Shown here one piece after another: positions 858 to 14,713 of a stretch of DNA of 24,000 bases; the stretch's first letter is position 1; every line of letters starts with the position of its first letter. The stretch comes from Acaryochloris marina S15 (GTDB taxonomy: Bacteria > Cyanobacteriota > Cyanobacteriia > Thermosynechococcales > Thermosynechococcaceae), in assembly GCF_018336915.1 (NCBI RefSeq), contig NZ_CP064923.1:4625372-4649371 (forward strand). The letters are read 5' to 3'. Below the pieces are notes generated by a model, which ran no database searches, was not told the DNA's origin, and saw only the letters and a program-made list of their open reading frames with translations. A program made the position numbers and the translations under genes.

Positions 858-867
858 AATCTGTATT

Positions 868-1992
868 TCAACTTATAGAAGGAACAAAAGAATTTTGATT
901 AATCGTTTGAGCGGGATAAATTTGGTTAATAACTTGATGGATTTTTTGAAAGAAGACGGGTTCGGAAAAGTGTGACAGGGCATGGTTTCGAATGTATTGA
1001 TAGTCCCATTCGATCTGTTGCGATCGCACGAGTGCTGCCTGCAGAGATGAGGCTGTTTGTTTATTGAAAAACACACCCGTCTGGCCTGGAACTTGGGTAT
1101 CGAGTACACCACCCGCACCAAAAGAAACCACTGGCGTTCCGCTGGCATTTGCTTCAACGGGAACCAAACCATAATCTTCTAGGGCTGCCACGACCACTGC
1201 TTTAGCTTTGGCCATCAGATGACAGCGCTCTGCATCAGAGATATATCCTAGAAATTCGACGTTTGATTTAGCTCGACGTTCTAAATGCTCCCGTTCCGGG
1301 CCATCTCCCATAATCTTCAAAGGCCAACCCAACTGATTAAACGCATCAATAATAACGTCAACACGCTTATAGCCCAACAATCGGGCAGATACTAAGAAAA
1401 AATCTTCTTTTTGGTCCGAAAAAGAAAATTTAGAATTATCAATTGGATAGTTGACTACAATCGCTTGCTTACTATAAGTCGATTGGATACGGCCGGCGAC
1501 TTCAGTCGAATTAGCAATATATAGATCGGGCTCTTGGGCATAGGCGAGATCAGCCTTCCTCATGACCCGAAACATTTTCTCGATAAAAGGGTAGAGATGC
1601 TGATAGTCTGCATACTCTCTCAAATAGGTTTGGGTGTCCCACAGAAAACGAGTGATGTTATGGCAAAAGCAGATATGTTTTGCATCCGATCGGGTTCGCA
1701 CCGCTTTAGCAAAGCTGGTGCTACTGCTAATAATTAGGTCATATTTCTGTAAATCCAACGCTCTAAAAGCTGGATAATAGAAAGGAGCCAACAGCCTAAA
1801 ATACTTGGTTGCCCCTGGTAATTTCTGTAAAAGAGTTGTATGAACAAGTCGATCGCCCAACTCTATCGTTTGTTGTGGATCGTATAGAGAAGTGAATATA
1901 TCTGCACTGGGGAAGTGACGACACAACAGCTCGAAAACCCTCTCAGCGCCTCCGCGTTGGGTTAGATAGTCATGAACTAGGGCAATCTTCAT
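868..1992 (-). CDS. Glycosyltransferase family 4 (GT-B fold, group 1)
   Basis: 374-aa ORF with an ATG start. The N-terminus MKIALVHDYLTQRGGAERV and the C-terminal EDYGLVPVEANASGTPVV region are typical of group-1/GT4 enzymes. Its stop lies 10 nt upstream of the Wzz-like gene start, so it is probably co-transcribed with that exopolysaccharide gene. Confidence 0.85.
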   Translation of the reverse strand: MKIALVHDYLTQRGGAERVFELLCRHFPSADIFTSLYDPQQTIELGDRLVHTTLLQKLPGATKYFRLLAPFYYPAFRALDLQKYDLIISSSTSFAKAVRTRSDAKHICFCHNITRFLWDTQTYLREYADYQHLYPFIEKMFRVMRKADLAYAQEPDLYIANSTEVAGRIQSTYSKQAIVVNYPIDNSKFSFSDQKEDFFLVSARLLGYKRVDVIIDAFNQLGWPLKIMGDGPEREHLERRAKSNVEFLGYISDAERCHLMAKAKAVVVAALEDYGLVPVEANASGTPVVSFGAGGVLDTQVPGQTGVFFNKQTASSLQAALVRSQQIEWDYQYIRNHALSHFSEPVFFQKIHQVINQIYPAQTINQNSFVPSIS

Positions 1993-2450
1993 AATTCGTT
2001 CGTACTTTAGCTGCTACTTCACCAGGACCCTTTGTTCAATTTTTAGAAATCACACGGATGTGGAGGAATAGGCTAGACAATATCATGAGCTTGACGATAC
2101 AACACTTCGTAAAAGGATACCCTAAACATGAGAATTATTGCTTTATAAAGATGACAGAACCCAATTCAATCCATAGCGCAGCTACTTCACTGTTCACTGC
2201 ATGGGTTATCTATTCTATAAAACTTCAATCTCAATATTCTCTGAAGAAAAGAAGCTAGGAATTCTCAATTTTTCTTTCAGCAATAGTCTCTCTTTCAACG
2301 CATGAGGGAGAATGATGTTTAAAGGTATTAGAAGTAAGTGAAAGTCCTGGGAACTTGGCCCAATTAGCCCACTTGCACCCCAGCAGGTTAAGTATAGCGT
2401 GGCATTTTTCCCCTCGCCAGATAATTTAGAAAGTTTTTCGTTAGTATCGG

Positions 2451-4265
2451 TTATCGATAGTTCTGAGCTTGGGTTTCAAACATCGATGCATAGACCCCAT
2501 TCAGGTTCATCAGCGTATTATGATTACCTTCTTCAATCATGTGACCTTGTGACATCACATAAATATAGTCCGCCATCTTAACTGTCGACAATCGGTGACT
2601 AATCAAAATGGCGGACTGATCTTGTATGAGCTCCCGAAACTGTTGGAAAACCTCATACTCAGCTTTGGGGTCCATTGCACTGGTTGGCTCATCCAGAACA
2701 ATCACTTGGGAATCTCGAAGAAAGGCACGAGCCAAAGCGATTTTCTGCCACTGCCCAATACTGAGTTCTTCTCCCTGATCAAACATCTTGCCTAAGACAG
2801 TATCGTACCCTTGAGGTAACGACTGGATCACTCTATCGGCCCCGGATAGTTGAGCCGCCGATCGGATTCGATGCTCATCGGCAGGTCTCTCAATATTCCC
2901 TAACTGGATATTCTCTCGGGCAGTGAAATGGTATTTAGCATAATCTTGAAAGATGACGCTGATATGGCTTTTCAGCTCAAGCTTGCTAAAGTTTTTGAGA
3001 TCAATCCCATCAATTGTGATATTCCCTTCAGTAGGATCGTAAAGCCGACAAAGTAGCTTAATTAATGTCGTTTTGCCAGAACCATTTTCACCCACTAAAG
3101 CAATGACTTGTCCTGGCTGAAGCTTGAGAGAAACATTGTGAATAGCTTGACGCTGGGTCGTTACATATTGAAAGCTCACATTATTGAAGGCAACTCCAGT
3201 GGCTAAACTCCCTGGAAAAGGCTGCGGGCATTCTGGCTCCAAAACTTTTGATTCTATATCTAAAAACTCGTATAGATTCGCAAGGAACAAATTATCCTCA
3301 TAAAGTCCAGATAGACTCCGTAACAAACCCTTCAGACTATTTTGGCCTTTTTGCAGTGCCTGATAGTAGAGAACTAAATCCCCTAATTTGAGCACTCCCA
3401 ACAAAGTTTGTTGGACCATATAGACAAAGATGGCAAATACAAACAGTCCTGCAATTACCTGGGCTCCAAAAAAGGCAAAGGATCGTTTGGAAACTATGCC
3501 TACTTTTTCTTTATAGATTATTTCCCGTAACTGGGAATATCTGTGTTTGAAATGTTCTCCTAAGTTAAATAGACGAATTTCCTTGGCAAACAAATCGCTG
3601 GTTTGTAACCACCCCAAATACATCGCCTGCCGTTCCAGCTGAGTACGACGACGCTTCCAGTGGTACATCACCCCTGCAAACTTCATCCGCACCAACACAG
3701 TCGGAATAGCAGCAACAAACAAAATCCCCACAATGCTCCAATGCAAGGCTAATAACAATCCCAACATTGCGATCAGTGAAATTGAACTTTGCCCGGCCAA
3801 GGCTAACCGATCCAGGATACGGGGAGGGCGATAGGGAGCCTCTTGTTGTGCCCGCTGCAAGGCATCATAATACTGGGCATTTTCGTAATACTCTAAGTCG
3901 GCTGAAATAGATTTAGAGTGGATAATGCCCTGCATATAATCCGTGACCCGCTGAGCATGAGCAATGGTAACCAAGTCCGATAGCGAGGCAAAGAAGGTCG
4001 TACTAATCGTCAAGCAAGCGGCAACAACCAATAAAGGAACGATATCGTTGATCGCTGATGCCCGGTTAGAGAGTGCTAAGCTAATCGTCACTTGGTCGAC
4101 AATCAGCTTAGTCATATAAATGGAAAATAAGGGTAGGATGCCCTGAATGATGACCAAGCCAATGCGCGCCAAAGTCCAGTTAGGACCGCTTTGCCAAACC
4201 AATTTCAAAGCTGGTATGAAGTGCAAGGGACGTTTGAATCTTGCTTTGATAAATCCAGTCAGCAT
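2451..4265 (-). CDS. ABC transporter, fused permease/ATPase; predicted lasso-peptide exporter/immunity protein (McjD-type role)
   Basis: 604-aa ORF with an N-terminal multi-helix permease half. Walker A is GENGSGKTT, the ABC signature is LSIGQWQKIALARAF and Walker B is VIVLDEPTS. It lies directly downstream of the precursor genes on the same strand. Confidence 0.85.
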   Translation of the reverse strand: MLTGFIKARFKRPLHFIPALKLVWQSGPNWTLARIGLVIIQGILPLFSIYMTKLIVDQVTISLALSNRASAINDIVPLLVVAACLTISTTFFASLSDLVTIAHAQRVTDYMQGIIHSKSISADLEYYENAQYYDALQRAQQEAPYRPPRILDRLALAGQSSISLIAMLGLLLALHWSIVGILFVAAIPTVLVRMKFAGVMYHWKRRRTQLERQAMYLGWLQTSDLFAKEIRLFNLGEHFKHRYSQLREIIYKEKVGIVSKRSFAFFGAQVIAGLFVFAIFVYMVQQTLLGVLKLGDLVLYYQALQKGQNSLKGLLRSLSGLYEDNLFLANLYEFLDIESKVLEPECPQPFPGSLATGVAFNNVSFQYVTTQRQAIHNVSLKLQPGQVIALVGENGSGKTTLIKLLCRLYDPTEGNITIDGIDLKNFSKLELKSHISVIFQDYAKYHFTARENIQLGNIERPADEHRIRSAAQLSGADRVIQSLPQGYDTVLGKMFDQGEELSIGQWQKIALARAFLRDSQVIVLDEPTSAMDPKAEYEVFQQFRELIQDQSAILISHRLSTVKMADYIYVMSQGHMIEEGNHNTLMNLNGVYASMFETQAQNYR

Positions 4266-4592
4266 AAACGGCCATTTGACAATGCATAGTGCAGAATTAT
4301 CCTAACGCTGTACGAACACACTCAGCGAGAGAGGTGAAAAACATGGCCAGCCCTAGTCAAAATCCTGGGTCATAGGATGGAGCTGATCTGCCAGATCGTT
4401 CACATTTCAATAATGAGGTCGAAGTCTTAGGGAGACTGCCTTACACCCCAGAGAAGCAAAGTCGTCATCCATATGGCTAAGCTGAAAAAGCCTGCATCCG
4501 AACAGCAAGGACTCATTCAGCAACACTGAAACCGTTGATCTTAAACAGGCCGTTATCGAGGAGATGCAATGTTGTGATCTGTTTTAGCTCAA

Positions 4593-4631
4593 ACAAATAG
4601 AGCCAGCATTTTGAAGGCTGACTCTGTTTGT
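4593..4631 (-). terminator. Candidate stem-loop (attenuator or mRNA-stabilising hairpin) between the precursor genes and the ABC exporter
   Basis: 4593-4607 pairs with 4617-4631: about 14 pairs, with one mismatch and one wobble on the minus-strand RNA, and a 9-nt loop. It sits 37 nt downstream of the stop of precursor copy 2. There is no clean U-tract after the stem; the U-rich run UAUUUGUUUG is partly inside it. It is therefore not a textbook intrinsic terminator. Confidence 0.3.
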
Positions 4632-4667
4632 ATCAATATTCAGTTTATAGATAACTGAAAAGGATGA

Positions 4668-4808
4668 CTATGACGTTACATCATCAATATCACCGGCAGG
4701 AATCGTCCCAAAAGGCACATCTGTCGCATTAAATGACGGTGAATTCTTAGTCATATCTTCTACGCTGCCATACACCTTCAACTGAGGTGCACCATAGGAT
4801 CTTTTCAT
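4668..4808 (-). CDS. Lasso-peptide precursor, copy 2 (46 aa): MKRSYGAPQLKVYGSVEDMTKNSPSFNATDVPFGTIPAGDIDDVTS
   Basis: Hand translation of the minus strand: ATG at 4808-4806, TAG at 4670-4668. AAGGAG (4826-4821) lies 12 nt upstream of the ATG. The leader matches YxxPxLx3Gx5Tx exactly (Y5, P8, L10, G14, T20). It sits between a lasso cyclase and an ABC exporter. A paralogous copy lies 334 bp away and differs mostly by silent substitutions. Confidence 0.8.
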   Translation of the reverse strand: MKRSYGAPQLKVYGSVEDMTKNSPSFNATDVPFGTIPAGDIDDVTS

Positions 4809-4878
4809 GGTCTTAGCTTACTCCTTACTTAATTTGTCTTTAGCTGTTCTGGCTTATGCATATGGAAGCATTTGCCAA

Positions 4879-4938
4879 TTAACAGCGTCTAATTGTTGTC
4901 AATTAGGTGTTTTACCCCCCAGGTCAGCTGTGAAACAA
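4879..4938 (-). promoter_or_regulatory. Conserved ~60-nt block upstream of precursor copy 2, containing an 18-bp palindrome (4889-4906)
   Basis: The minus-strand sequence TTGTTTCACAGCTGACCTGGGGGGTAAAACACCTAATTGACAACAATTAGACGCTGTTAA is almost identical to the block upstream of copy 1, while the flanking spacer has diverged. The palindrome is CTAATTG-ACAA-CAATTAG. Promoter elements could not be assigned with confidence; TTGTTT-18nt-TAAAAC is one possibility. Confidence 0.4.
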
Positions 4939-5001
4939 TTCAAGCTGGACCACGACGCAAACATTCTAGCAACAATCAAAAAATCGTGGCTGGGTAATAA
5001 A

Positions 5002-5142
5002 CTATGACGTTATATCATCAATATCCCCAGCAGGAATGGTTCCAAATGGCACATCGATAGCATTCACCGATGGCGCATTCTTTGTCATATCTTCTACGCT
5101 TCCGTAAGCCCTCAATTGAGGTGCATCATAAAATTTTTTCAT
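5002..5142 (-). CDS. Lasso-peptide precursor, copy 1 (46 aa): MKKFYDAPQLRAYGSVEDMTKNAPSVNAIDVPFGTIPAGDIDDITS
   Basis: Hand translation of the minus strand: ATG at 5142-5140, TAG at 5004-5002. AAGGAG (5160-5155) lies 12 nt upstream. It has the same leader motif and the same Asn1/Asp9/C-terminal Ser architecture as copy 2. Confidence 0.8.
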   Translation of the reverse strand: MKKFYDAPQLRAYGSVEDMTKNAPSVNAIDVPFGTIPAGDIDDITS

Positions 5143-5215
5143 GGCCTTAGCTTGCTCCTTAAGTCATCTGCTTTTAGCAGCTGTTCTGGTTTACTTATAT
5201 GAGTTGCCATACAAG

Positions 5216-5274
5216 TTAACAGCGTCTAATTAAAGTTAATTAGGTGTTTACCCCCCAGGTCAGCTGTGAAACAA
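5216..5274 (-). promoter_or_regulatory. Conserved block upstream of precursor copy 1, containing an 18-bp palindrome (5226-5243)
   Basis: The minus-strand sequence is TTGTTTCACAGCTGACCTGGGGGGTAAACACCTAATTAACTTTAATTAGACGCTGTTAA. The palindrome is CTAATTA-ACTT-TAATTAG. Relative to copy 2, the innermost arm pair changed G:C to A:T on both arms, so the symmetry is preserved by a compensatory change. Confidence 0.4.
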
Positions 5275-5432
5275 GTTTCTAGCCGGACCATGATGCCGCT
5301 ATTTTAGGCAGTATCCAGTGGAAAATCTTGCCGAGTGGACATCAATTCAGCATACAAATCCAGTTTAGACATTATAGCTTTTAAAATATATGGGGAGAAT
5401 CTCAATCCTTAAATATTCATAAGATTTGATTA

Positions 5433-7406
5433 CTATTGCGTGGATTCTGCAAAATTGGAGCTTAGATTAGCTTGTTGTAGCCAAAGAATCAAGTTAACGG
5501 CAATCCAAATCAGTAAAGTGTCGTTAGCTTCAGCATGTCCTGTGTGCCATCGATTGACTAGGTTAGTCAGCTCTTGCATATCAATAAAGTCTGCAATGGC
5601 ATCAGGAGGATGACTGAGGACCTGGTGGATCAAGTCCGTACCGTATTTCTCTAGGGTATGGTCAAACGCTGTGCCCAAATTTCCTTTCCCTGCGCGCCAC
5701 TGAATTTGGGGAGGAAGAATACCTTCGAGTCCACGTCTGATAATCAACCGAGTCCAACCATTTTGCATCTTCTGCTCCTCTGGTAGAGAGACACAAAATT
5801 CTACTAACCGCTTATCCCAAAAGGGAAATCGCAATTCAATTTGGGATGCGGCGGCTGTTCGATCCATCACTTCTAGGGTCGAAGAGACTAAGCCAGACGT
5901 AACATCAACGATATGTTCATGACGTTGAGATGGTTGTGCGCCAAAGCGCTGACGACGCAACTGTTTATAGCGCTGTAGCACTGATGCCCGATCGATAAAG
6001 TCTGGGCTAAGGGGAATGGCCCAAGGCATTGCTGGAGCTGCCTGTGATGCACTAGGGTCTTGCTGTCCACGAGATTGCCAAGTGTTGACTTTACGAATAA
6101 TTTTGGTGATCTTTGTCTTCTTGAGGAGGGGGTTGATGCCAAATTTACGGACATAGGACCGATACAGTGGCCATAAGTCGTAACCGAAGCTTTGACAAAA
6201 CCCGCTCATCTCGCGCCATAACTTGAGCCAATGTCCCGCTTTGGCAAGGGTGCGCAAATACCCTACTCCATGGGATACCGCCTGATCACCATCAAAGCCA
6301 TCCAATAACACCCGGACGGATTGGCCCTGAGCGATTTGATATAAGGCATGGGTTAAGTGGGAGTTACAGGCAAATAAGGGTTCGTCTTGAAGGGCCAACA
6401 TCTGCTGATAATCTGTCCAGGGTCCGAGTTGATCTCCCTGTACATACTGAGGCTCGATAGGCCGCTGATGAACCACTGCATTAATGAATTCCTGTTCATC
6501 AGATGCCGTTATTTCATTAAACACGGCAGAGAAGGTGGGGAATTTAGCGGTCTCTTGTGCCTCCTGTCTCAACTGGGCAGTCATACAGGTGATGGAGGAG
6601 GAGTCAATGCCACCACTTAACATCGTGCCCACGGGAAATGCACTTCTGAGGCGACAGCGCACTGCTTCGGTAAAAATAGCTTGAAACTGTTCAGCATAGG
6701 CTTGATCGGACTCAAGCTGTAGTTCAACGTCAGGATCGAGAGACCAGTAGGATGAGATGTCCAGATTGTTTTTGCTCACCGTCATCCGGTGAGCAGGAGG
6801 AAGTCGCAGGATCTGCTCATAGAAGGTCATTTCTGAATCAAACAACATGAGGGTCAGATAGTCGGCGACTCTGGTTTCATTTAAGGCTTTAGGCACTTCT
6901 GGCAGGTGAAACAGCGCTTTCATTTCGCTTGCAAAGGCAAACACCTGTTCAGAGGCATAGTAAAAGAAAGGCTTGACCCCAAAATGATCGCGGGCACAAA
7001 ACAAATGCTGTTGAGTGGCATCCCAGAGGGCAAAGGCAAAGTCACCCAGGAGAAATTCAGGACATTGTTCACCCCATTTTTCGTAGGCAGCAAGAATGAG
7101 AGCGCTATCGGTAATAACTTCGGATGTAGGCTGTTCCAGGCCCAACTGGGTCATCAGATCAGCACGATTATCAATCCGCGCGTCGGCAGTGAGGACTAAG
7201 GTTTGGGAGGCATTGCTGAGAGGAGGCGTTTCAAACCGGGATTCTGGGGTTGTCTGTAATAAACAATGGCCGAGGCCAACCTGATCTTGACTCCATATAT
7301 TTGTCCCATCCGGTCCCCGATGGGACAGAGATTGGACCATTTGATGCAGATGATCAATCCCCCCAGGATGAGGGTGAGGATAAACAAAGCCAGTAATTGC
7401 GCTCAT
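5433..7406 (-). CDS. Lasso-peptide cyclase (asparagine synthetase B-like, McjC-type)
   Basis: 657-aa ORF. The PP-loop ATP-pyrophosphatase motif is MLSGGIDSSSIT. The N-terminus is MSAITGF rather than the MCGI of true AsnB, so the glutaminase Cys nucleophile is absent, as is typical of lasso cyclases. The gene is flanked by other lasso genes. Confidence 0.9.
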   Translation of the reverse strand: MSAITGFVYPHPHPGGIDHLHQMVQSLSHRGPDGTNIWSQDQVGLGHCLLQTTPESRFETPPLSNASQTLVLTADARIDNRADLMTQLGLEQPTSEVITDSALILAAYEKWGEQCPEFLLGDFAFALWDATQQHLFCARDHFGVKPFFYYASEQVFAFASEMKALFHLPEVPKALNETRVADYLTLMLFDSEMTFYEQILRLPPAHRMTVSKNNLDISSYWSLDPDVELQLESDQAYAEQFQAIFTEAVRCRLRSAFPVGTMLSGGIDSSSITCMTAQLRQEAQETAKFPTFSAVFNEITASDEQEFINAVVHQRPIEPQYVQGDQLGPWTDYQQMLALQDEPLFACNSHLTHALYQIAQGQSVRVLLDGFDGDQAVSHGVGYLRTLAKAGHWLKLWREMSGFCQSFGYDLWPLYRSYVRKFGINPLLKKTKITKIIRKVNTWQSRGQQDPSASQAAPAMPWAIPLSPDFIDRASVLQRYKQLRRQRFGAQPSQRHEHIVDVTSGLVSSTLEVMDRTAAASQIELRFPFWDKRLVEFCVSLPEEQKMQNGWTRLIIRRGLEGILPPQIQWRAGKGNLGTAFDHTLEKYGTDLIHQVLSHPPDAIADFIDMQELTNLVNRWHTGHAEANDTLLIWIAVNLILWLQQANLSSNFAESTQ

Positions 7407-7426
7407 GATGACAGAAGGGTCGAAAT

Positions 7427-8644
7427 TTAGGAATGAGAAGTGGGTTCAATCTCTTTAATCATGAGAAATCCCTCTTGAATCAAGTTCTGAGTTAAGGACA
7501 ATCTGCCAGCATCATTAATCAAACCACCAATATCTTTTATGGCCAGACAGGAATGGTCGATCAGATCGGTCAGGGAAGCCGCTAGAAAGATAGGAAAGGT
7601 TAGGCTTTTTTGATAGAAGTTCAAAATAATTTGGGTTGAACTTCTATCAACTGAAAATAGGATATTGGGCCTACGGGCAACGACAGAATCGAGATTGAGC
7701 TGTGGCAGATGGATCAGGTCTTGGAAGCGGCCTTGGTCTTCTGATTTGCGATCGCACAAAAATACCCCATTCTTCCGCTCCACCAATTCTTTGGTCTTCA
7801 CCCTATTCATTAAGGACTGGCTCAGGGTTTGAAACGATTCATCAAAAGCCTGCTGTTGCTCAGAACTGGAAAAACCGTGGGGAATCGCTTTCCGAAAGGC
7901 CGGGTCAGCCTGGGCAATGGTGACCAACTCCTCCAAGAGTTCGTAAGCAAAGGTGGGATATAACCCTAGGGATGCGTGGACTGAAGTGGTTTCTTGACTG
8001 GCCGCTTGATGGACCACACCCCGAGGAATATAGAGCAAATCACCAGGCTGGAGCATTACCGTTAACTCTGGCTCAGCCAGTTCATGGCGGCCAATACTTT
8101 GATCTCTGATGTGAGAGGGTAGCTCAACGGGGGAATGGTAGAGTTTCCATTCTTTCTCCCCGGTGATTTGGAGAATAAACACATCATGTTCGTCGTAATG
8201 AGGTGCTAAACCCTGGGCTTGGGGGGGCGTGATGTAGATATTGGTTCGGAGCTTAAACTTCAGCTCGCATTCTAGGGCACTACAAAAGTGTCGCAGCTTG
8301 GGAATTTTCTTGTGGGCCCCGTTGATGGTCAAGGTTAAGCCCTGGTGCAACAAGCTATACAGCTTGTCATTGTCAATAAAATATTGTTGGGATTTAGAGT
8401 GGCGTTCGCACCAGTCTTCCAGACTTAGCTTATTGCCCTGATCCACTAGGCGGAAGTTATTGTAATCCGCCAACAAAGCTTTGTTTTGCAGCAGTAGATC
8501 GATGTCGCCTGGATCTAGGACCGACCCATAAAAAAAGGCATCATTCCTGGGCAAATGAAGCGTTTTTGCTTCCCAATAGGTCTGGAAAAAATCTTCAATC
8601 GTGCAGGGAGCGATTAAACGGGCAAACTGAGACTCAACCTTCAT
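7427..8644 (-). CDS. JmjC/cupin-4 family Fe(II)/2-oxoglutarate oxygenase (RoxA/YcfD-like peptide or protein hydroxylase)
   Basis: The facial-triad context is GLAPHYDEHDVFILQITGEKEWKLY (HxD), LLYIPRGVVHQA, and the distal His in TSVHASLG. The track starts the ORF at a TTG (8665). I prefer the ATG at 8644-8642, which overlaps the kinase stop (CATGAAGGTTGA) by 11 nt. Confidence 0.75.
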   Translation of the reverse strand: MKVESQFARLIAPCTIEDFFQTYWEAKTLHLPRNDAFFYGSVLDPGDIDLLLQNKALLADYNNFRLVDQGNKLSLEDWCERHSKSQQYFIDNDKLYSLLHQGLTLTINGAHKKIPKLRHFCSALECELKFKLRTNIYITPPQAQGLAPHYDEHDVFILQITGEKEWKLYHSPVELPSHIRDQSIGRHELAEPELTVMLQPGDLLYIPRGVVHQAASQETTSVHASLGLYPTFAYELLEELVTIAQADPAFRKAIPHGFSSSEQQQAFDESFQTLSQSLMNRVKTKELVERKNGVFLCDRKSEDQGRFQDLIHLPQLNLDSVVARRPNILFSVDRSSTQIILNFYQKSLTFPIFLAASLTDLIDHSCLAIKDIGGLINDAGRLSLTQNLIQEGFLMIKEIEPTSHS

Positions 8645-9539
8645 GGGCCAGGATGTGATTTTCAACTAGGGTAGCAATGTCCGGCAGTAAATCTAAGGAA
8701 GCTGGTCGTAGAAGACGCAAGAGAGGCACCTGTTGAGCCAGTATCATCAGTTGCTTAAAATGGCTGGCCCCTCGCTCCTGCAATAAAGTTTGCTCAAAGC
8801 GGGTGACATAGGAGTTTTGCATCAAATGTTGAATAATCTCCTGGGGCGGCAACGGCTTAATGGCGACTTCGTCTCCTTGCCCCAGCACAAAAATATATCT
8901 AAGAGGCAGAATGTCAGCCATAAAGCCCGAAGAGAGCTGATGATTCCGTTTTTCTAAGCGGGCACCTAATCGCGGCAAATCTTCGGGTTGCTTGCCAATG
9001 CAAGCGACGGCATCTGGCCACAGCTTAATTTGAGGAAAGGCAGGTTGCACCTGAATTTGATGACGTTGGATTTCCAGGGCCACCACATCATCCGCAATTA
9101 AGCTATGGCCTCGATCATGCAAGGTAGCTGCCATCGTGGATTTGCCCCACCGTTTTTGACCGATAAAGGCCACGGCTTCGCCTTCTAAGGCCACAGCGCT
9201 GGCATGGAGGACCAAAAATCCTCGTTGGTGCAATACGACCCCCATCACCGCGCCTAGAATAAACAGGCGAAGGCGATCCTCATCCAGATCGATCTCTAAA
9301 TCAATCAGGACATCTTGCCCTTCCTGAATCAAAAACGTCCCCACTCCCTGCCAATATAAATACATCCCCGCATCTGTATTTTGATAGCAATGCAGGGTGT
9401 TTTCGGTTTGCAAAGGACTATCGGTAATGGCACCAAAATGAATCCAAACATCCGCATCAGTTGCCAGGGTAGAGATCAGTTCTGGCAGTTGAATTTCAGA
9501 CTGTAGGGTCAAGCCATAGGCTGAGTAAAAGTGGGACAT
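8634..9539 (-). CDS. HPr kinase/phosphorylase-like protein; predicted lasso-precursor Ser kinase (paeninodin PadeK-type)
   Basis: 301-aa ORF. Walker A sits in the HprK-like context LHASAVALEGEAVAFIGQKRWGKSTMAATL. The gene is embedded in a lasso operon whose precursors end in Ser. Confidence 0.7.
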   Translation of the reverse strand: MSHFYSAYGLTLQSEIQLPELISTLATDADVWIHFGAITDSPLQTENTLHCYQNTDAGMYLYWQGVGTFLIQEGQDVLIDLEIDLDEDRLRLFILGAVMGVVLHQRGFLVLHASAVALEGEAVAFIGQKRWGKSTMAATLHDRGHSLIADDVVALEIQRHQIQVQPAFPQIKLWPDAVACIGKQPEDLPRLGARLEKRNHQLSSGFMADILPLRYIFVLGQGDEVAIKPLPPQEIIQHLMQNSYVTRFEQTLLQERGASHFKQLMILAQQVPLLRLLRPASLDLLPDIATLVENHILAHEG

Positions 9540-9672
9540 GGCAATTGCGGTTATCCAGACTCAAAGAATAACGTTTTTAGGCGATTTTTGCCTTAAGCAA
9601 TCAGGGTTAGATATTTGAGAAAGATAAAGTAGAGCCTGGAGAATCAATCCTGCAGATATAGACCGCCAATCC

Positions 9673-10602
9673 CTACCGTGGGTCCATAGGCAGGATTTTC
9701 TTGAGGTTGGACTTGAGTTTTTTCAGGAACGGTTGAGCGGATTTAGGGGAGTTGGCAGTAAACAGCTCATAGATTAACTGTTCGAATAGCGGATTGGGCA
9801 CCATGGGGTCTGGGTGAATCATGGCATCTAGGTCCAAATTAAAGGTCGGCAACTCATTCAGACCTTGGTTTCCTTGGGTATGACTGCCTTGAGTACCAAT
9901 ATTAGAAACCAGATTGACCTTGGGCACCACGGTAAGACCATTCTGGGCAAGACAAGAATAAAACCACGGAATATCCCAAACTTGTTGGTTTTGATAAGCC
10001 CAGTCAAATAATTGGGTAACCCAATCTGCTAGGGCTGGCTGCGGAAAAAATTGGGCCTGTCGATACTGAGGCCAGCCCGTCATTTTGAGGTCGTAGCATT
10101 GCCAAGCCCTGCGCCAAGAGGCCCATCCCCAAGACACAAAAAATTTAGAAAACACATAGGTCTGGGGAATCGGTAAGGTATCTCCCAGAAAATTACTGCC
10201 GGAGATAGTCATCACTTGAGATAGATGACGGTACTGGGCCAACATGGCTTGGCAAAAAGGGAAAAAACTGGGATGGGGAAGACAATCATCTTCTAAAATG
10301 ATCGCTTCTTCCACCTGAGAGAACACCCAATCCAACCCCTGGGCATTGCAACACCGCCCCCCAAGATTCGAGTCTGAAAAATGGGTGAGCACCTCGCACT
10401 CCCAATCCACTTGATCGACAATGGCTCTAGCTTGCTGGCATAATTTTTGGTCCTCTGGAACATCAGCTCTCGGGCCATCTGCAACGATTAACAAAGCTTG
10501 TGGTTTGGCCTGGGCAATCGCGGCAAACACCTGACTGGAATATTGAGGGCGATTGAAAATATGAAACGCAACGGGAGTGGAAAGGGGCATCAGGAGTGCC
10601 AT
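9673..10602 (-). CDS. GT-A-fold glycosyltransferase (GnT-I/GT13-like, 'HlpA-like' family)
   Basis: 309-aa ORF. The N-terminus is VAFHIFNRPQYSSQVFAAIAQAKPQALLIVADGPR. The acidic motif ILEDDCLPHPSFFPF resembles the EDDLEVAPDFF motif of GnT-I. No sulfotransferase PAPS-binding motifs were seen. The assignment rests on remembered family signatures only. Confidence 0.55.
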   Translation of the reverse strand: MALLMPLSTPVAFHIFNRPQYSSQVFAAIAQAKPQALLIVADGPRADVPEDQKLCQQARAIVDQVDWECEVLTHFSDSNLGGRCCNAQGLDWVFSQVEEAIILEDDCLPHPSFFPFCQAMLAQYRHLSQVMTISGSNFLGDTLPIPQTYVFSKFFVSWGWASWRRAWQCYDLKMTGWPQYRQAQFFPQPALADWVTQLFDWAYQNQQVWDIPWFYSCLAQNGLTVVPKVNLVSNIGTQGSHTQGNQGLNELPTFNLDLDAMIHPDPMVPNPLFEQLIYELFTANSPKSAQPFLKKLKSNLKKILPMDPR

Positions 10603-10620
10603 GGAAGAAGAAGCGGAATT

Positions 10621-11229
10621 TCAGACAAACCAGCTGACAATCGAGAAGCGCTCACCATAGGTGACCGGTTTAACTTCATGCCAGAGATCGGATCGAAACG
10701 CAATCAGTTGACCTTGTTCAGGCTCCAGAGGGAAGCCATAGTTTTGACCGCGAGCATCATCAAGTAATCCATAGAGGGCTAAGGCTCCGCCCCCAAAGGT
10801 CTGAGGACTAGGCTCAGCGGACATACTGTTGAGGAAAATAATTAAAGACACCAGTCGATTTTTTTCAAACTTAGAGCCCGGTAGGCTCGGATCGATGACA
10901 TCTCGATGAAGGCCAAAAAAGTCGCCCACTTGATAGCGATAGCAGGAGGGGGGTTCTAAGTCCTGGAGTTGGACCTGGAAATGGGTTTCTAATCGCGGCT
11001 TAATAGCAATTAAGCGCTCACGAATGCTCTGGGCCGTGGTTTGACTTATTTGCAACTGGCCCGTTTTTCGTCGACTATTGTCGGTCACAGCCTCACCATA
11101 TCTTGTGAGGCGAGCGGGCTCACAGGGGCAGGTCTGTGCTTCCGTGAGGTAGGACTCACAAAATTGTGGATCTAAAAAGCCGGGGTCAACAAATACCCCC
11201 AAGCGTTCAAAAAAAGCAGCGCTAGGCAT
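10621..11229 (-). CDS. 2OG-Fe(II) oxygenase, prolyl 4-hydroxylase-like
   Basis: 202-aa ORF. HxD is in DFFGLHRDVIDP. The distal His and the 2OG-binding Arg are in LIAFRSDLWHEVKPVTYGERFSIVSWF. It ends 18 nt upstream of the GT-A gene. Confidence 0.8.
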   Translation of the reverse strand: MPSAAFFERLGVFVDPGFLDPQFCESYLTEAQTCPCEPARLTRYGEAVTDNSRRKTGQLQISQTTAQSIRERLIAIKPRLETHFQVQLQDLEPPSCYRYQVGDFFGLHRDVIDPSLPGSKFEKNRLVSLIIFLNSMSAEPSPQTFGGGALALYGLLDDARGQNYGFPLEPEQGQLIAFRSDLWHEVKPVTYGERFSIVSWFV

Positions 11230-11299
11230 TGCTCCGAACCTTTTATTCAGCGATGGAAAAATATTTAATATTCTAGATCAAGTCCTCAGAAGATGAGGC

Positions 11300-11758
11300 T
11301 TAGATCTTGGAATCAAATGATGGCATTGGTGTAAAGCGGGATAAGTCATTCACAAAGCCCATGATCACTTGCCCTTGCAACTCAACCCAGGCATGGGCTT
11401 CTAGAGAATGGTCTTCTGCTTTAGCAACCCCAATTTTTAGCTCGGGTTCATAGCCTCGCCGACAAATTAACACTTGAGTGACGAGGGCTCGAGCTAAACA
11501 TTTCACCTTTCCTGGCATAAAGCGGCTGCTGGTGTTCACTGCCCAGACCACTTTACCTACGGTCCTACGACTAATCTTAGTCAGGGTAGGCGATTGATAG
11601 TAAGCAGACGTTTGGTGAAAGTTGACCAGCCATTTTTGCAGGATTTTGAAGGGTAGCAACCACAACCCCAATCGAACCAAGCCCAAGAGAACGTAGGTTT
11701 TGATCAGGAGGGTGCGATCGCAACTTCGCAACCGCAAAAATTTAAGCACTGGCGACAT
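11300..11758 (-). CDS. Lasso-peptide leader protease B2 (transglutaminase-like cysteine protease)
   Basis: KCLARALVTQVLICRRGYEPELKIGVAKAEDHSLEAHAWVELQG carries the Cys and His (AHAWVE) signature of lasso B2 proteins. The track ORF starts at a TTG (11770). The ATG at 11758 is more likely, and either start overlaps the end of B1. Confidence 0.85.
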   Translation of the reverse strand: MSPVLKFLRLRSCDRTLLIKTYVLLGLVRLGLWLLPFKILQKWLVNFHQTSAYYQSPTLTKISRRTVGKVVWAVNTSSRFMPGKVKCLARALVTQVLICRRGYEPELKIGVAKAEDHSLEAHAWVELQGQVIMGFVNDLSRFTPMPSFDSKI

Positions 11759-12047
11759 CTTTGATCTCAATCAATTCCGATTCAGCCATCTCATTTAGCA
11801 ACCTCATGACATCTTGTTCACACTGGTCCGACCCAACTTCGTATTGATCTAAAATTTGGTCGCAGATATCTTTAACCGATCGAGGTTGCTGAAGTAAATT
11901 CCAAACACTTGCACCCACTTCATTCAAACCGAAGTACATTCCTGTCTTCAGGTTGAGGATAACTGATTCCCCGGCTAAGTCAGATGAGACTTGCTCTGGG
12001 GTCGCAACAACCGTTGTATTCGTTGAAATAGTGGTAGTCAAACTCAT
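11742..12047 (-). CDS. PqqD-family RiPP recognition element (lasso B1)
   Basis: 101-aa ORF. DLAGESVILNLKTGMYFGLNEVGASVWNLLQQPRSVKDICDQILDQYEV...DVMRLLNEMAESELI follows the PqqD pattern (GE.vll....g.yf.LN..g..iW.ll), and the gene overlaps B2. Confidence 0.85.
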   Translation of the reverse strand: MSLTTTISTNTTVVATPEQVSSDLAGESVILNLKTGMYFGLNEVGASVWNLLQQPRSVKDICDQILDQYEVGSDQCEQDVMRLLNEMAESELIEIKDVASA

Positions 12048-12236
12048 AACCCTTTAAAACAATCTAATATAATGCAGATTTCGTTTAAGTTAGCACAGAT
12101 ATTTTATATTTATCCGTAGGAATTAAAACATTTAACCATTAGCTTTACAGGGATTGTCGACTCATTTTTCGCCAGACAACTTTGACCCATTTTATGCCGT
12201 GTTGACGATGCCGCTGACAGACTGTATTTCCGCTGC

Positions 12237-13439
12237 TTACCTTTTTGAATTGCAGAATTTTTCAACGCAACGCACAAAGATTTCCACTCCCATGGCTAAA
12301 GCAGTCTCATCAAAATCGAATTGGGGATGGTGGTGGGGATAGGCTAATCCTCGCTCGTCATTGGCTGAACCCAAAAAGAAGTAGCAACCTGGAACTTCTT
12401 GCAAAAAGAAGGACATGTCTTCCCCTCCCATGGTTTGACAGTTGGGAACCACACCTGTTGGTGTTTCAATCACTTCAGTACTGATGGAGCGTACTAAATC
12501 TGCGATCGCAGCATCATTTATCACAGGTGGATACAGTCGCCAATACTTTAAGTCGTAGGTGGCTCCCCAACTTTGACAAATCCCCGTCAGGATATCCTGC
12601 ATACGCGGCTCAATCAGATGGGCCAATTCTGGGTCAAAGTAGCGAACCGTGCCGCTCATAAAGCTGGAGTCGGCAATCACATTAGAAGCTGTGCCCGCAT
12701 GGAGTTGTCCGATGGTCACCACAGCTGAATCGAGGGGATTGACATGGCGAGCCACAATGGCTTGGAGGGCGTTGACGATTTGAGCGCTGATCACCACTGC
12801 ATCCGTGGTTTGGTGAGGCATGGCGCCATGTCCCCCCTTGCCCTGAATCTTGCATTCAAATAGATCCACGGCAGCCATCAGCGGCCCTGATTTGACGCCA
12901 ACGGTGCCGAGGGGGAGATTGTTCCATAAGTGCAGGCCAATAATGGCATCAACTTGCGGGTTTTGCAGAACACCCGCCTCAATCATGGGCTTGGCCCCAC
13001 CCGGAGATTCTTCAGCAGGCTGGAAAATGATCTTGACCGTACCGGCAAAGTCTTGGCGATGTTGAGATAAATAGCGGGCTGTTCCCAGAGCAATGGCCGT
13101 ATGTCCATCATGGCCGCAGGCATGCATGACCCCATCGTGGCGTGACCGATAGGAAACCGTATTCTCTTCCTGAATGGGCAAGGCATCTATGTCTGCCCGA
13201 ATCGCTAACACTGGCCCCGGTTGTGCCCCAGAGATCGTGGCCATGATACCCGTTTCAGCAATGCCTGTTTGATGGTCAATGCCCCATTCTGTTAAGCGCT
13301 GAGCTACAAATTCAGCAGTGAGATGCTCTTTGAATCCAAGTTCTGGATATTGATGCAGATGCCGTCGCCAAGAGACTAAATCCAGTTGTTGGATATCTGA
13401 GCGAATGGAGGTATCAGAATGAGGAGGAGAAGAAACCAT
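12237..13439 (-). CDS. M20/M25/M40-family amidohydrolase (N-acyl-L-amino acid amidohydrolase / hippurate hydrolase-like)
   Basis: 400-aa ORF. WRRHLHQYPELGFKE, MHACGHDGH and FQPAEE are characteristic of the ILR1/AmhX-type M20D subfamily. Confidence 0.85.
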   Translation of the reverse strand: MVSSPPHSDTSIRSDIQQLDLVSWRRHLHQYPELGFKEHLTAEFVAQRLTEWGIDHQTGIAETGIMATISGAQPGPVLAIRADIDALPIQEENTVSYRSRHDGVMHACGHDGHTAIALGTARYLSQHRQDFAGTVKIIFQPAEESPGGAKPMIEAGVLQNPQVDAIIGLHLWNNLPLGTVGVKSGPLMAAVDLFECKIQGKGGHGAMPHQTTDAVVISAQIVNALQAIVARHVNPLDSAVVTIGQLHAGTASNVIADSSFMSGTVRYFDPELAHLIEPRMQDILTGICQSWGATYDLKYWRLYPPVINDAAIADLVRSISTEVIETPTGVVPNCQTMGGEDMSFFLQEVPGCYFFLGSANDERGLAYPHHHPQFDFDETALAMGVEIFVRCVEKFCNSKR

Positions 13440-13951
13440 AGTACTCTTCCCAAAACGGGAAAACGGTCAATTACTTCTTTAAGAATACTATTCCTAGATT
13501 TTTCACGAGCAGTAAGCCAAAAACCAAATTAGCAACAAAAACCAGTTGATATCTTCATTCTCACAGTCTTAACTCTGAACTTAGAGTAAGCTAACCATCA
13601 ACGGATGGGCTCCACCGTTATTATCTAAAATCTTTGTTTGTGTTCTGCGGCTAAAAGACCTCAGCCTTACTGACTGATGATCCTACGTTTGGTGGCTTCG
13701 CATTTCAACTTTTAGTTCCAGTTGCTAAGCCTTGGTTTTAGATGAATTACGCCTTGAATATTTATTGCGAAGTGGGTTGATTTTTGGTGGGTCAGCTACG
13801 ATCCAAAAAAATTTGCTACTGGTATCTGCAGTTTTCTACTCCAAAGCTAGCACTGGATATTCGACAATCATGCCCATAGTTCAGGTCGGCTCGCGTCAGT
13901 AAAGCTAAGCTTCTAGCCGTACTTTTACCAACCCTTCACACTATCTTTATG

Positions 13952-14167: not shown

Positions 14168-14169
14168 TT

Positions 14170-14583: not shown

Positions 14584-14713
14584 CTCAAGTAATACAAAAT
14601 CGCATGGAATACAGCAATCCAAGATCAAAGGCATTACTTGATTTCAACCTCTCTCGTATCACTGCTAGTTGAATCGACACGGTTTATTCTGGCATCGTCT
14701 GAGTATAAGCCCT

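Follow-up and report, generated by a model that had tools for sequence, protein, structure and literature searches.

Known tailoring of lasso peptides includes phosphorylation by a kinase, the joint action of a kinase and a nucleotidyltransferase, hydroxylation by the Fe/2OG enzyme CanE and, since 2025, the activity of a membrane GT2 glycosyltransferase, IgtG. CanE provides the precedent for an Fe/2OG enzyme that hydroxylates a lasso precursor while it is still linear, and the published specificity of lasso kinases is for the C-terminal Ser of linear precursors (PMC8498205). JmjC and cupin hydroxylases are known from another RiPP pathway, that of biphenomycin (PMC12257519), and glycosyltransferases have earlier been noted beside cyanobacterial lasso clusters (PMC6993621). 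The literature searched contains no lasso pathway with a JmjC enzyme, with a GT13-like enzyme or with the combination of enzymes described below, and no characterised cyanobacterial lasso peptide. Within that literature, the novelty that the initial annotation had claimed for both the enzyme combination and its cyanobacterial origin is therefore borne out.

Acaryochloris is a chlorophyll-d cyanobacterium. The window analysed here, 24,000 nt from the genome of A. marina S15, contains between positions 2451 and 12047 what is probably a functional, split-B, kinase-type (paeninodin-like) lasso cluster, making two related, strongly acidic 25-residue lasso peptides. The ORF map reveals ten co-directional minus-strand genes (Table 1), located and oriented as originally described; the earlier count of eleven was one too high. 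Two small intergenic ORFs, 4407-4526 and 5304-5405, were rejected as genes, as they show no protein-level conservation in the closest relative. The tight junctions reported before are all reproduced: B1 and B2 overlap by 29 nt if B2 starts at its TTG (17 nt with ATG 11758), 18 nt separate the first oxygenase from the GT-A gene, the kinase and JmjC genes overlap by 11 nt if the latter starts at ATG 8644, and 20 nt lie between JmjC and the cyclase. The JmjC ORF extends to TTG 8665 (7427-8665, the first possible start), and ATG 8644 is favoured because the homologues are 405 residues long. The remaining gaps are looser, with 70 nt between B2 and the oxygenase, 133 nt between GT-A and kinase, 290 nt between cyclase and A1, 193 nt between A1 and A2, and 402 nt between A2 and the ABC gene.

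Table 1. Features of the lasso cluster, in window coordinates.
Feature	Position	Strand	Evidence
B1, PqqD-type RiPP recognition element, 101 aa	11742..12047	-	NF033536 83.9 bits (cut-off 80); PF05402 76 bits
B2, transglutaminase-like Cys protease, 156 aa from TTG 11770 (alternative ATG 11758)	11300..11770	-	NF033537 119.7 bits (cut-off 33); PF13471 E 1e-30
Fe(II)/2OG oxygenase, P4H-like PF13640 family, 202 aa	10621..11229	-	PF13640 57.7 bits (cut-off 27)
Soluble GT-A fold glycosyltransferase, GnT-I-like (GT13), 309 aa	9673..10602	-	AlphaFold model and Foldseek
HPr-kinase-like P-loop kinase, 301 aa	8634..9539	-	PF07475 29.6 bits, under gathering score 33.3
JmjC (Cupin_4/ROX-type) Fe(II)/2OG oxygenase, 405 aa from ATG 8644	7427..8644	-	PF08007 107.9 bits (cut-off 22), E 3e-31
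C, Asn-synthetase-like lasso cyclase, 657 aa	5433..7406	-	NF033535 'lass_lactam_cya' 892 bits (cut-off 525); PF00733 E 2.5e-51
28-nt conserved block with palindrome, upstream of A1	5247..5274	-	Identical to the copy upstream of A2
Precursor A1, 46 aa; leader MKKFYDAPQLRAYGSVEDMTK, predicted core NAPSVNAIDVPFGTIPAGDIDDITS	5002..5142	-	NF033528 lasso_cyano 32.0 bits (cut-off 33), leader-only match
28-nt conserved block with palindrome, upstream of A2; candidate 5'-UTR hairpin or operator	4911..4938	-	Identical copy upstream of A1
Precursor A2, 46 aa; predicted core NSPSFNATDVPFGTIPAGDIDDVTS	4668..4808	-	NF033528 31.3 bits
Hairpin followed by U-run, between A2 and ABC gene	4593..4631	-	-16.8 kcal/mol, z -4.0
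D, ABC exporter, fused permease/ATPase, 604 aa	2451..4265	-	PF00005 E 7e-34; MsbA/HlyB-type NCBIfam models align full-length

The core lasso machinery is confirmed as complete and intact, in agreement with the initial annotation, which had recognised a minimal set of A, B1, B2, C and D. The profile searches, passing curated family thresholds, place the 657-, 156- and 101-aa proteins in the lasso C (NF033535), B2 (NF033537) and B1 (NF033536) families. B1, which is 93% identical to its A. marina MBIC11017 counterpart (dN/dS 0.16), is predicted to bind the precursor leader, and B2, with Cys91 in a KCLA motif and His126 in an AHAW motif, is the predicted leader peptidase. The cyclase carries the ATP-binding motif SGGIDSS at residue 264, and its residue 2 is Ser instead of Cys, so that it lacks the glutaminase nucleophile. 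The exporter is 58-96% identical to ABC proteins encoded in other cyanobacterial lasso loci.

Both precursors score just under the NF033528 cut-off. Their leader residues Y-17, P-14, L-12, G-8 and T-2 fit the motif YxxPxLx3Gx5Tx exactly, from which cores of 25 residues are predicted, each with a ring between N1 and D9 and with Ser as its last residue. Asn, the predicted first core residue, is unusual among lasso peptides. The ring-forming Asp9 is present in both precursors and among their relatives, and both cores end in Ser. The precursor gene and its upstream region are tandemly duplicated (334-337 nt), with A2 as the second copy. The two copies of the 28-nt block are 100% identical; the block is kept in MBIC11017 and forms a perfect palindrome in the related locus L003. 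The regions upstream of the precursors are structured (z -1.6 to -4.1). The hairpin downstream of A2, which was overlooked by the consensus scan because its loop is 9 nt long, is conserved in MBIC11017 (-22.5 kcal/mol, z -5.7) and is likely an intrinsic terminator or attenuator that probably holds precursor mRNA above transporter mRNA.

The full cluster is syntenic in MBIC11017, with protein identities of 84-97%, and every gene, the four tailoring genes included, is under purifying selection (dN/dS 0.03-0.16 at dS 0.2-1.0). Gene content, family membership, catalytic motifs and precursor motifs are, like this synteny and selection, directly established. Many RiPP clusters are silent in laboratory conditions, and it is conceivable that this one is silent or decaying and yields no mature product in the strain, as would fit the lack of a characterised cyanobacterial lasso peptide in the literature searched and the loss of B1/B2 in a related lineage. 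Such a fate is nonetheless improbable, given that all ten ORFs are intact with their catalytic motifs, that the selection values argue against decay, and that MBIC11017 retains both precursor copies together with their upstream elements. In the related lineage, represented by L003-5, no B1/B2 genes occur within 10 kb, so the clade may include members that do not depend on B proteins.

The four enzymes encoded between B2 and the cyclase were originally taken for dedicated tailoring enzymes, a view that holds to different degrees: it is strongly supported for the kinase and the JmjC oxygenase and reasonably supported for the PF13640 oxygenase, and it is only plausible for the GT-A protein. For the kinase, the profile of a 12-member family matches HPr kinase structures (E 1.4e-8), PF07475 is matched by all 12 members, and the motifs G127-x4-GKS(T) (P-loop) and ADD (149-151) are present. 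[quoted passage not shown]

Co-occurrence across genomes further reveals that the kinase and JmjC pair is widespread in cyanobacteria, and thus shared beyond this window. All seven contexts examined for JmjC homologues of at least 34% identity (34-83%) are lasso clusters in which the gene adjoins a kinase; such neighbours are found in Chlorogloeopsis, Nostoc, Scytonematopsis, Dapis, Calothrix and one unassigned metagenomic lasso cluster, spanning several orders and either gene order. A homologue with 33% identity is located outside any lasso context, and the protein belongs to a small, lasso-specific subfamily. His149, Asp151 and His212 are invariant. Sequence comparison with MINA53/NO66 (phmmer, E 5e-30) and the AlphaFold model (pLDDT 91.5), which Foldseek aligns to NO66 with E 2.5e-32 and TM 0.7 over ~450 columns covering all three domains, point to the full three-domain fold of these ribosomal oxygenases. 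Among characterised enzymes, the best matches of the model are NO66, MINA53 and YcfD, which are beta-hydroxylases of protein residues, and JmjC is accordingly predicted to beta-hydroxylate a core residue, most likely the Asp at position -4. Each of the five lineages that combine JmjC with precursors ending in Ser has Asp at -4 or -5 (DVTS, DITS, DVAS, DCTLS), and this Asp is missing from all six Ser-terminated precursors of four loci that lack JmjC, a correlation that covers few, phylogenetically related lineages.

The same architecture would also suit a ribosomal-oxygenase role; one or both oxygenases could act on a cellular protein, or could function in regulation or immunity, and share no more than a transcript with the cluster. 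The core peptide contains neither His nor Arg, the residues on which ribosomal oxygenases are known to act, so that activity on a lasso core would represent a new specificity, and a profile comparison by hhalign gives no match between the C-terminal domain of JmjC and PqqD recognition elements (probability 1.3%). Such roles outside the peptide pathway are nevertheless very unlikely in view of the constant adjacency to the kinase, the restriction of the small subfamily to lasso clusters down to 34% identity, the way in which JmjC presence tracks the C-terminal Asp motif, and the biphenomycin precedent.

The PF13640 oxygenase, a predicted peptide hydroxylase, has His108-x-Asp110, His184 and Arg194, and among PDB sequences it best matches 3dkq, a PKHD-type hydroxylase (E 3e-5). 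Outside the Acaryochloris clade it was found in a single metagenomic lasso locus. Its assignment to tailoring is based on conservation within the clade (78-94% identity in L001, L003 and L011) and on a 42%-identical homologue adjoining the kinase in lasso locus L089.

The GT-A protein has no match in Pfam, NCBIfam or PDB sequences. Its AlphaFold model (pLDDT 91.3) is closest by Foldseek to GnT-I (1fo8, E 8e-11), followed by POMGnT1 and GnT-II, and in 48 homologues the EDD motif shows invariant Glu104 and Asp106, with Asp105 in at least 90%. The family exceeds 7,900 members, and a 51%-identical homologue sits in polysaccharide clusters, surrounded by genes for flippase, methyltransferase, GT4 and GT2 proteins; the gene was recruited from clusters of this type. 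These relatives, and the absence of the gene from L011, where the cluster is otherwise identical, are the reasons why its role is graded lower. It may instead be a polysaccharide glycosyltransferase that landed in the operon and uses a sugar or lipid acceptor, leaving the peptide only phosphorylated and hydroxylated; a polysaccharide locus (GT4, Wzz) directly adjoins the cluster downstream, and GT-A is its least conserved gene relative to MBIC11017 (85% amino-acid identity). This scenario, though less remote than the other two, is still unlikely, since the gene occurs in both L001 and L003-5 and keeps the slot 18 nt past the oxygenase in the window, MBIC11017 and the more distant L003-5 (68% identity), and its dN/dS is 0.12. 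Moreover, related kinase-type clusters carry an NTP_transf_5 gene and use it for glycosylation, a gene that is missing from the Acaryochloris clade, and glycosyltransferases beside cyanobacterial lasso clusters have a precedent (PMC6993621). Sugar transfer to the peptide is the preferred prediction for GT-A.

In the proposed pathway, in which each reaction and its place in the sequence, the residues modified and the threaded topology are all predicted, B1 would bind both precursors, A1 and A2, at their YxxPxL leader, and the kinase would phosphorylate Ser25 on the linear precursor. JmjC would then beta-hydroxylate a neighbouring residue, most likely Asp22, and the PF13640 oxygenase a second one, either Pro or another Asp/Asn. 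GT-A could add a sugar to a new hydroxyl, to Ser/Thr or to the phosphate, and in the last case it would stand in for the NTP_transf_5 of related clusters. Finally, B2 would cut after Lys21, the cyclase would link the Asn1 amine to the Asp9 side chain, and the ABC transporter would export the product.

NCBIfam already has models for the cluster type (lasso_cyano, lass_lactam_cya), the genome of the A. marina type strain carries it too, and the locus represents a known kind of system. Its combination of tailoring enzymes has no experimental precedent in the literature searched, and the cluster is a promising place to look for new peptide chemistry. Whereas the related cyanobacterial clusters are paeninodin-like with a kinase and an NTP_transf_5 protein, the cluster in the window has the kinase without NTP_transf_5.

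The lasso-peptide genes at 2451-12047 form a compact unit of ten genes, all on the minus strand, and not of eleven as the initial annotation had counted. Two small intergenic ORFs, of 39 aa (4407-4526) and 33 aa (5304-5405), were considered as an eleventh gene; neither is conserved as a protein in A. marina. The tight junctions described earlier, namely the B1/B2 overlap, the 18-nt gap between the oxygenase and the glycosyltransferase-like gene and the 20-nt gap between the JmjC gene and the cyclase gene, all match the ORF coordinates. The 11-nt overlap of the kinase and JmjC genes holds as well, given that the latter starts at the ATG at 8644, which is favoured because its homologues are 405 aa long.

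Genes of the lasso-peptide cluster, in window coordinates
Gene	Position	Strand	Length
B1	11742-12047	-	101 aa
B2	11300-11770	-	156 aa
2OG oxygenase (PF13640)	10621-11229	-	202 aa
Glycosyltransferase-like protein (GT-A)	9673-10602	-	309 aa
Kinase	8634-9539	-	301 aa
JmjC protein	7427-8644/8665	-	405/412 aa
Cyclase	5433-7406	-	657 aa
Precursor A1	5002-5142	-	46 aa
Precursor A2	4668-4808	-	46 aa
ABC exporter	2451-4265	-	604 aa

Curated HMMs, together with the leader motif of the precursors, bear out that the core machinery (A, B1, B2, C and D) is complete, and the proteins of 657, 156 and 101 aa fall into the lasso C, B2 and B1 families above the cut-offs. The cyclase scores 892 bits against NF033535, 'lasso peptide isopeptide bond-forming cyclase' (cut-off 525), and additionally matches PF00733, GATase_6 and GATase_7. 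B2 reaches 119.7 bits against NF033537 (cut-off 33) and B1 83.9 bits against NF033536 (cut-off 80), with further matches to PF13471 and PF05402, respectively, and the exporter matches PF00005. Catalytic motifs are intact in the cyclase (SGGIDSS; position 2 is Ser, so that there is no Cys2), in B2 (Cys91 and His126), in the kinase and in both oxygenases. By its cyclase, its B1/B2 pair and its precursors, the cluster is classified as a split-B type lasso peptide gene cluster, for which a threaded macrolactam is predicted, and NCBI annotation models already cover clusters of this type. Synteny with the chromosome of A. marina MBIC11017 extends over the whole cluster, with proteins that are 84-97% identical, and the cluster is selectively maintained rather than decaying, since dN/dS between the two strains is 0.03-0.16 (twelve genes compared, dS 0.2-1.0).

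Both precursors fit the leader motif YxxPxLx3Gx5Tx exactly, with Y5, P8, L10, G14 and T20 at positions -17, -14, -12, -8 and -2, and the same motif is found in about sixty precursor candidates beside related cyclases. Cleavage is predicted after Lys21, which gives 25-residue cores, NAPSVNAIDVPFGTIPAGDIDDITS for A1 and NSPSFNATDVPFGTIPAGDIDDVTS for A2. As lassos, these would have monoisotopic neutral masses of 2480.207 (A1) and 2518.150 (A2), to which a phosphate would add 79.966, each hydroxyl 15.995, a Hex 162.053 and a HexNAc 203.079; A1 with phosphate, two hydroxyls and HexNAc would come to 2795.243 ([M-2H]2- 1396.614). Asp9, which is also present in the orthologues, is the sole acidic residue at ring distance in both cores, and a DVP(F/Q)GT segment is conserved after the ring Asp in the cores of relatives. 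Against NF033528, 'lasso_cyano', the two precursors score 31-32 bits, slightly below the cut-off of 33, in a match limited to the leader. Both end in Thr-Ser, as do all orthologues of the clade.

A1 and A2 arose as a tandem duplication of 334-337 nt that took in some 200 nt upstream of the gene as well. Upstream of A2 and A1, within the duplicated regions 4809-4960 and 5143-5294, lies a 28-nt block, the same in both copies (4911-4938 and 5247-5274, minus strand), with the palindrome GGTC(C)AGCT...AGCTGACC, which is perfect in L003, a metagenomic locus of the Acaryochloris clade. Other hairpins lie at the corresponding place upstream of the precursors in three further lasso loci (L009, L010 and L012), and RNA folding of precursor upstream regions gives z values of -1.6 to -4.1; the block may act as an operator or, within the 5'-UTR, as a stabilising hairpin. 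A second hairpin, followed by a U-run, is located 40-70 nt past the A2 stop codon (4593-4631, minus strand; -16.8 kcal/mol, z -4.0) and is kept in A. marina MBIC11017 (L001, 12758-12800; -22.5 kcal/mol, z -5.7). Its probable role is that of an attenuator by which the amounts of precursor and exporter mRNA are set relative to each other. A scan for promoter and terminator consensus sequences returned counts no higher than the shuffled expectation, and it missed the hairpin after A2 because the loop has 9 nt. In L009 (13647-13751) and L010 (9356-9430), the stretch between the kinase and ABC genes holds a conserved ORF of 34 aa with a terminal Ser (MKHKFYFGLGQDYGENINQSGDILSYQMDELEAS); it has no lasso leader motif and may either encode a second substrate of the kinase or be an ORF by chance.

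The kinase, as a single sequence, scores 29.6 bits against PF07475, under the gathering score of 33.3. A profile of 12 orthologues matches HPr kinase structures at E 1.4e-8, and PF07475 matches 12 of the 12 members; the P-loop (G127-x4-GKS(T)) and an ADD motif at 149-151 are present. Both features of paeninodin/pseudomycoidin-type lasso peptides, an HPr-kinase-like kinase and a core ending in Ser, are thus found here, and phosphorylation is predicted. As the initial annotation had said, kinase-containing lasso clusters are known, with paeninodin and pseudomycoidin as examples. The NTP_transf_5 nucleotidyltransferase that accompanies many such kinases was searched for by tblastn with the L009 protein, which gave matches in L009, L010, L012, L014-L016 and many others and no match in the Acaryochloris-clade loci L001, L003-5 and L011. 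In the window, which lay outside the tblastn database, Pfam and NCBIfam scans found no match among the minus-strand ORFs of the cluster. Judged by these searches, no member of the Acaryochloris clade has NTP_transf_5. The PsmN-like NTP_transf_5 is an accessory trait by which phosphorylation is not defined, and the GnT-I-like GT-A protein may have replaced this enzyme in glycosylation.

Directly beside the kinase gene lies that of the JmjC protein, which matches PF08007 with 107.9 bits (E 3e-31) and carries an iron triad, His149-x-Asp151 ... His212, that is invariant in 44 homologues. In its AlphaFold model (pLDDT 91.5), all three domains can be superposed on NO66 and MINA53, and a Foldseek comparison with NO66 (4y33) gives E 2.5e-32 and a TM of 0.69-0.72 over about 450 alignment columns. 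The modelled architecture would be that of the ribosomal oxygenases (ROX), composed of the JmjC domain, dimerisation helices and a C-terminal winged helix. The ribosomal oxygenases NO66 and MINA53 are beta-hydroxylases of protein residues. The window protein shares this architecture and the HxD...H iron site with NO66, MINA53 and YcfD, but differs from them in its low identity (22-24%), in its RiPP-cluster context and in a likely substrate without His or Arg, residues that are absent from both cores. It is called ROX-like in fold only, and not a ribosomal oxygenase; its gene always adjoins a lasso kinase, a context that argues against a ribosomal His or Arg as the substrate. RRE-like domains have been reported on some JmjC fusions (PMC12710340). 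A reading of the C-terminal domain as a PqqD-like recognition element is not supported, as profile-profile comparison with the B1 family gave a probability of 1.3% and the whole protein, winged helix included, superposes on NO66 instead.

The JmjC protein has few homologues (138 matches at E <= 1e-10), most of them cyanobacterial. At 34% identity or more, all contexts examined, those of Chlorogloeopsis (L012), Nostoc (L013), Scytonematopsis (L095), Dapis (L096), Calothrix (L098), the unassigned L014 and the Acaryochloris clade, are lasso clusters in which the JmjC gene directly adjoins the kinase gene, in either order, while a homologue at 33% identity (L097) has a non-lasso context. Asp is found at -4 or -5 in five of the five JmjC-positive lineages with Ser-ending precursors (DVTS, DITS, DVAS, DCTLS) and in none of the six Ser-ending precursors of four JmjC-negative loci (NVAS, SVAS, PIGS, PPIS, LPCS). 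Because the presence of JmjC coincides with a C-terminal Asp in this comparison, which covers a small sample of related lineages, we hypothesise that the enzyme beta-hydroxylates Asp(-4). The enzyme belongs to a putative JmjC hydroxylase family of the ribosomal-oxygenase type that is dedicated to kinase-type cyanobacterial lasso clusters, and the site prediction, Asp at -4, is testable.

The second oxygenase scores 57.7 bits against PF13640 (cut-off 27) and retains His108-x-Asp110 ... His184 and Arg194; the nearest relative with a solved structure, a PKHD-type hydroxylase, is itself uncharacterised. It is conserved across the Acaryochloris clade and has a homologue in the metagenomic lasso locus L089. 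The cores carry Pro3, Pro11 and Pro16, but Pro, including Pro11 and Pro16, also occurs in cores of clusters that lack this oxygenase, and the precursor comparisons singled out no residue as its target or as the acceptor of the GT-A protein. GT-positive cores have Pro3-Ser4 and the GT-negative L011 has Ala3-Gly4, which is one contrast only.

For the 309-aa protein, the label of GT-A glycosyltransferase holds at the level of the fold, as predicted by AlphaFold (pLDDT 91.3), and not at the level of the family: sequence searches of Pfam, NCBIfam and the PDB gave no match, and no curated GT family claims it. The best matches of the model are GnT-I (1fo8, E 8e-11), POMGnT1 and GnT-II, followed by other GT-A enzymes; the leading PDB entries are 1fo8/1fo9 (E about 1e-10, TM 0.5), 5ggi and 5vcs, and the top 50 are all glycosyltransferases, mostly of GT-A fold, except 2pa4, a UDP-glucose pyrophosphorylase. 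GnT-I uses an EDD motif, and across 48 homologues of the window protein Glu104 and Asp106 are invariant and Asp105 is at least 90% conserved, an acidic motif of the DxD type for metal and nucleotide sugar. Only one homologue has a precomputed PF03071 match, and NCBI labels some of the homologues as 'GT family 2'. On this model, the protein is of GT-A fold, resembling GT13 (GnT-I/POMGnT1), and, by sequence, outside any curated GT family. The family has more than 7,900 proteins, one of which, from Acaryochloris sp. 'Moss Beach', is 100% identical to that of the window, and the gene was recruited from polysaccharide clusters, since members with 51% identity sit there.

That the four additional enzymes are dedicated to tailoring, as first proposed, is supported overall, with the GT-A role being plausible and not established. 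A tailoring role of GT-A is favoured by the fixed slot 18 nt after the oxygenase in three lineages, by purifying selection and by a clade without NTP_transf_5, and disfavoured by the absence of the gene from L011 and by the adjacent GT4/Wzz polysaccharide locus. This locus comprises GT4/polysaccharide genes at 868-1992 and 3-866 (minus strand). GT4 genes, often with Wzz/BY-kinase genes, also adjoin distant cyanobacterial lasso clusters (L009 4240-5394, L010 1239-3547, L012 1118-3497, L095 15035-16312), and the window GT4 is 62% identical to that beside L009, yet the cyclases are 49% identical and the arrangement is different. The proximity may reflect a functional link to glycosylation or exopolysaccharide, or merely a common neighbourhood. 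Several kb upstream of the cluster lie a tRNA gene (15788-15861, plus strand), which is the sole match of an Rfam scan and distant from the cluster, and a TnpB/IS605 OrfB-type gene with OrfB_IS605 and Cas12f1-like TNB domains (18089-19318, plus strand). Other neighbours are housekeeping-like (M20 peptidase, ADP-ribosylglycohydrolase, TrmB-like methyltransferase, GlgC).

Within the Acaryochloris clade, L011 (cyclase 69% identical) has the same cluster minus the GT-A gene, and the metagenomic L003-5 (cyclase 68% identical) have the four tailoring genes, the cyclase, one precursor and the exporter. In L003-5, B1 and B2 are absent within 10 kb and have left no remnants; very permissive tblastn of L003 gave noise only. 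These natural single-part differences are usable as built-in controls. Beyond the clade, a genome scan with the cyclase as a single protein matched only A. marina and one distant Chitinophagaceae, and the broader context was drawn from protein-cluster look-ups and a metagenome scan. The cyclase has a large family of cyanobacterial relatives, about 45-50% identical to it, with members in Pleurocapsa, Richelia, Chlorogloeopsis, Calothrix, Nostocales and others. The contexts read (L009 and L010) have a common backbone, B1-B2-C-A-kinase-ABC plus the NTP_transf_5 nucleotidyltransferase, which is the enzyme set of the published paeninodin and pseudomycoidin clusters. A cyclase profile retrieved 80 metagenomic loci, many of them with homologues of the kinase and of NTP_transf_5; no JmjC or GT-A gene was found in them, and L089 alone has a PF13640 oxygenase homologue (42% identical), directly after the kinase.

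The NF033535-family clusters of Pleurocapsa (L010), Chlorogloeopsis, Scytonematopsis, Calothrix, Dapis and Nostoc, none of them characterised, have cyclases 34-50% identical to that of the window and share with it the leader motif, DVP(F/Q)GT after the ring, the kinase and the ABC exporter; several have a kinase-adjacent JmjC, a pairing often met in lasso clusters of cyanobacteria. Most have NTP_transf_5 and some a PCMT-like methyltransferase (the Nostoc locus has neither), and, unlike the window, none has the PF13640 oxygenase or GT-A. In Scytonematopsis (L095 8001-11099) and Calothrix (L098 8001-11068 and 14522-17215), a PCMT-like (isoaspartyl) methyltransferase comes after the JmjC-kinase pair; the Calothrix locus also has dTDP-sugar biosynthesis genes after NTP_transf_5 and a 406-aa PqqD-containing fusion protein upstream. 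L014 (JGI 3300031454, 430-14978) is a more heavily decorated lasso cluster than that of the window, with B1, B2, cyclase, two precursors ending in CTLS, NTP_transf_5, ATP sulfurylase/APS kinase, two 2OG-FeII_Oxy_3 proteins, PhyH, a kinase-like gene, JmjC, HTTM and a sulfotransferase. By BLASTP, neither its two 2OG-FeII_Oxy_3 genes and PhyH nor a 310-aa protein encoded in L012 resembles the PF13640 oxygenase or GT-A of the window.

Taken together, the initial observation is confirmed and its interpretation supported, with corrections on the gene count, the GT-A role, the spread of the kinase+JmjC pair and the NCBI models. A bolder reading, which we consider doubtful but possible, is that the Acaryochloris product is the first lasso peptide to combine tailoring reactions of four different kinds, namely JmjC-dependent beta-hydroxylation of Asp(-4), phospho-Ser, P4H-like hydroxylation and GnT-I-like glycosylation, and that kinase+JmjC marks a widespread cyanobacterial subclass. 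A repurposed ROX-type JmjC would beta-hydroxylate Asp(-4), adjoining the phosphorylated C-terminal Ser, and the P4H-like oxygenase and the GnT-I-like transferase, encoded 18 nt apart, would jointly install a glycosylated hydroxy-amino acid, analogous, if formed, to eukaryotic Hyp-O-glycosylation. If this is true, the poly-anionic tail of beta-hydroxy-Asp, Asp and phospho-Ser could bind metals, and the kinase+JmjC pair would define a widespread, unstudied lasso subclass in cyanobacteria. Lasso peptides are prized as very stable scaffolds, and new tailoring enzymes enlarge the engineering toolbox. The cluster is a genome-mining lead within a well-known RiPP class, with no new principle, and it offers a concrete, intact and well-defined experimental target with exact predicted masses.

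Cyanobacterial lasso peptides are described as underexplored; solved lasso structures come from three phyla only, cyanobacteria not among them, and no isolated cyanobacterial lasso peptide was found in the literature searched. The sole paper found that names both Acaryochloris and lasso peptides (PMC8600333) discusses no Acaryochloris lasso cluster. The tailoring repertoire in the literature includes HPrK-like kinases, kinase plus PsmN, methyl- and acetyltransferases, PAD, epimerase, CanE and, since 2025, IgtG. JmjC and cupin hydroxylases are used in biphenomycin biosynthesis (PMC12257519), and none was found for lasso pathways in the literature searched. The closest chemical precedent for the proposed JmjC reaction is CanE of canucin A (Streptomyces canus), an Fe(II)/2OG enzyme that beta-hydroxylates the C-terminal Asp on the linear lasso precursor (PMC8498205); by its description it is not a ROX-type JmjC, and canucin, unlike the window, has neither kinase nor glycosyltransferase. 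In the davasins of Streptomyces davaonensis, the lasso-cluster glycosyltransferase IgtG O-glycosylates Ser (PMC11912497). IgtG, a bifunctional deacetylase/GT2 bound to the membrane, modifies the mature lasso iteratively, whereas the window enzyme is a soluble 309-aa GnT-I-like GT-A. A cyanobacterial cluster from Stanieria, which has a kinase and a recognisable glycosyltransferase and no B genes (Zyubko et al. 2019, PMC6993621), is the analogue of the B-less L003-5. Pseudomycoidin of Bacillus pseudomycoides relies on the kinase PsmK and the nucleotidyltransferase PsmN, its glycosylating enzyme being of the NTP_transf_5 type, without oxygenases; in the window, NTP_transf_5 is absent and the GnT-I-like GT-A is present. 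Paeninodin (Paenibacillus dendritiformis) and the proteobacterial ThcoK/SyanK clusters share with the window the split B1/B2, the cyclase, the ABC exporter, the HPr-kinase-like enzyme and the Ser-ending precursor (PMC8498205), a likeness judged on gene content. The window differs from them in having no NTP_transf_5 and no sulfotransferase, and it goes beyond them with two Fe/2OG oxygenases, the GT-A protein, two precursor genes and its cyanobacterial origin.
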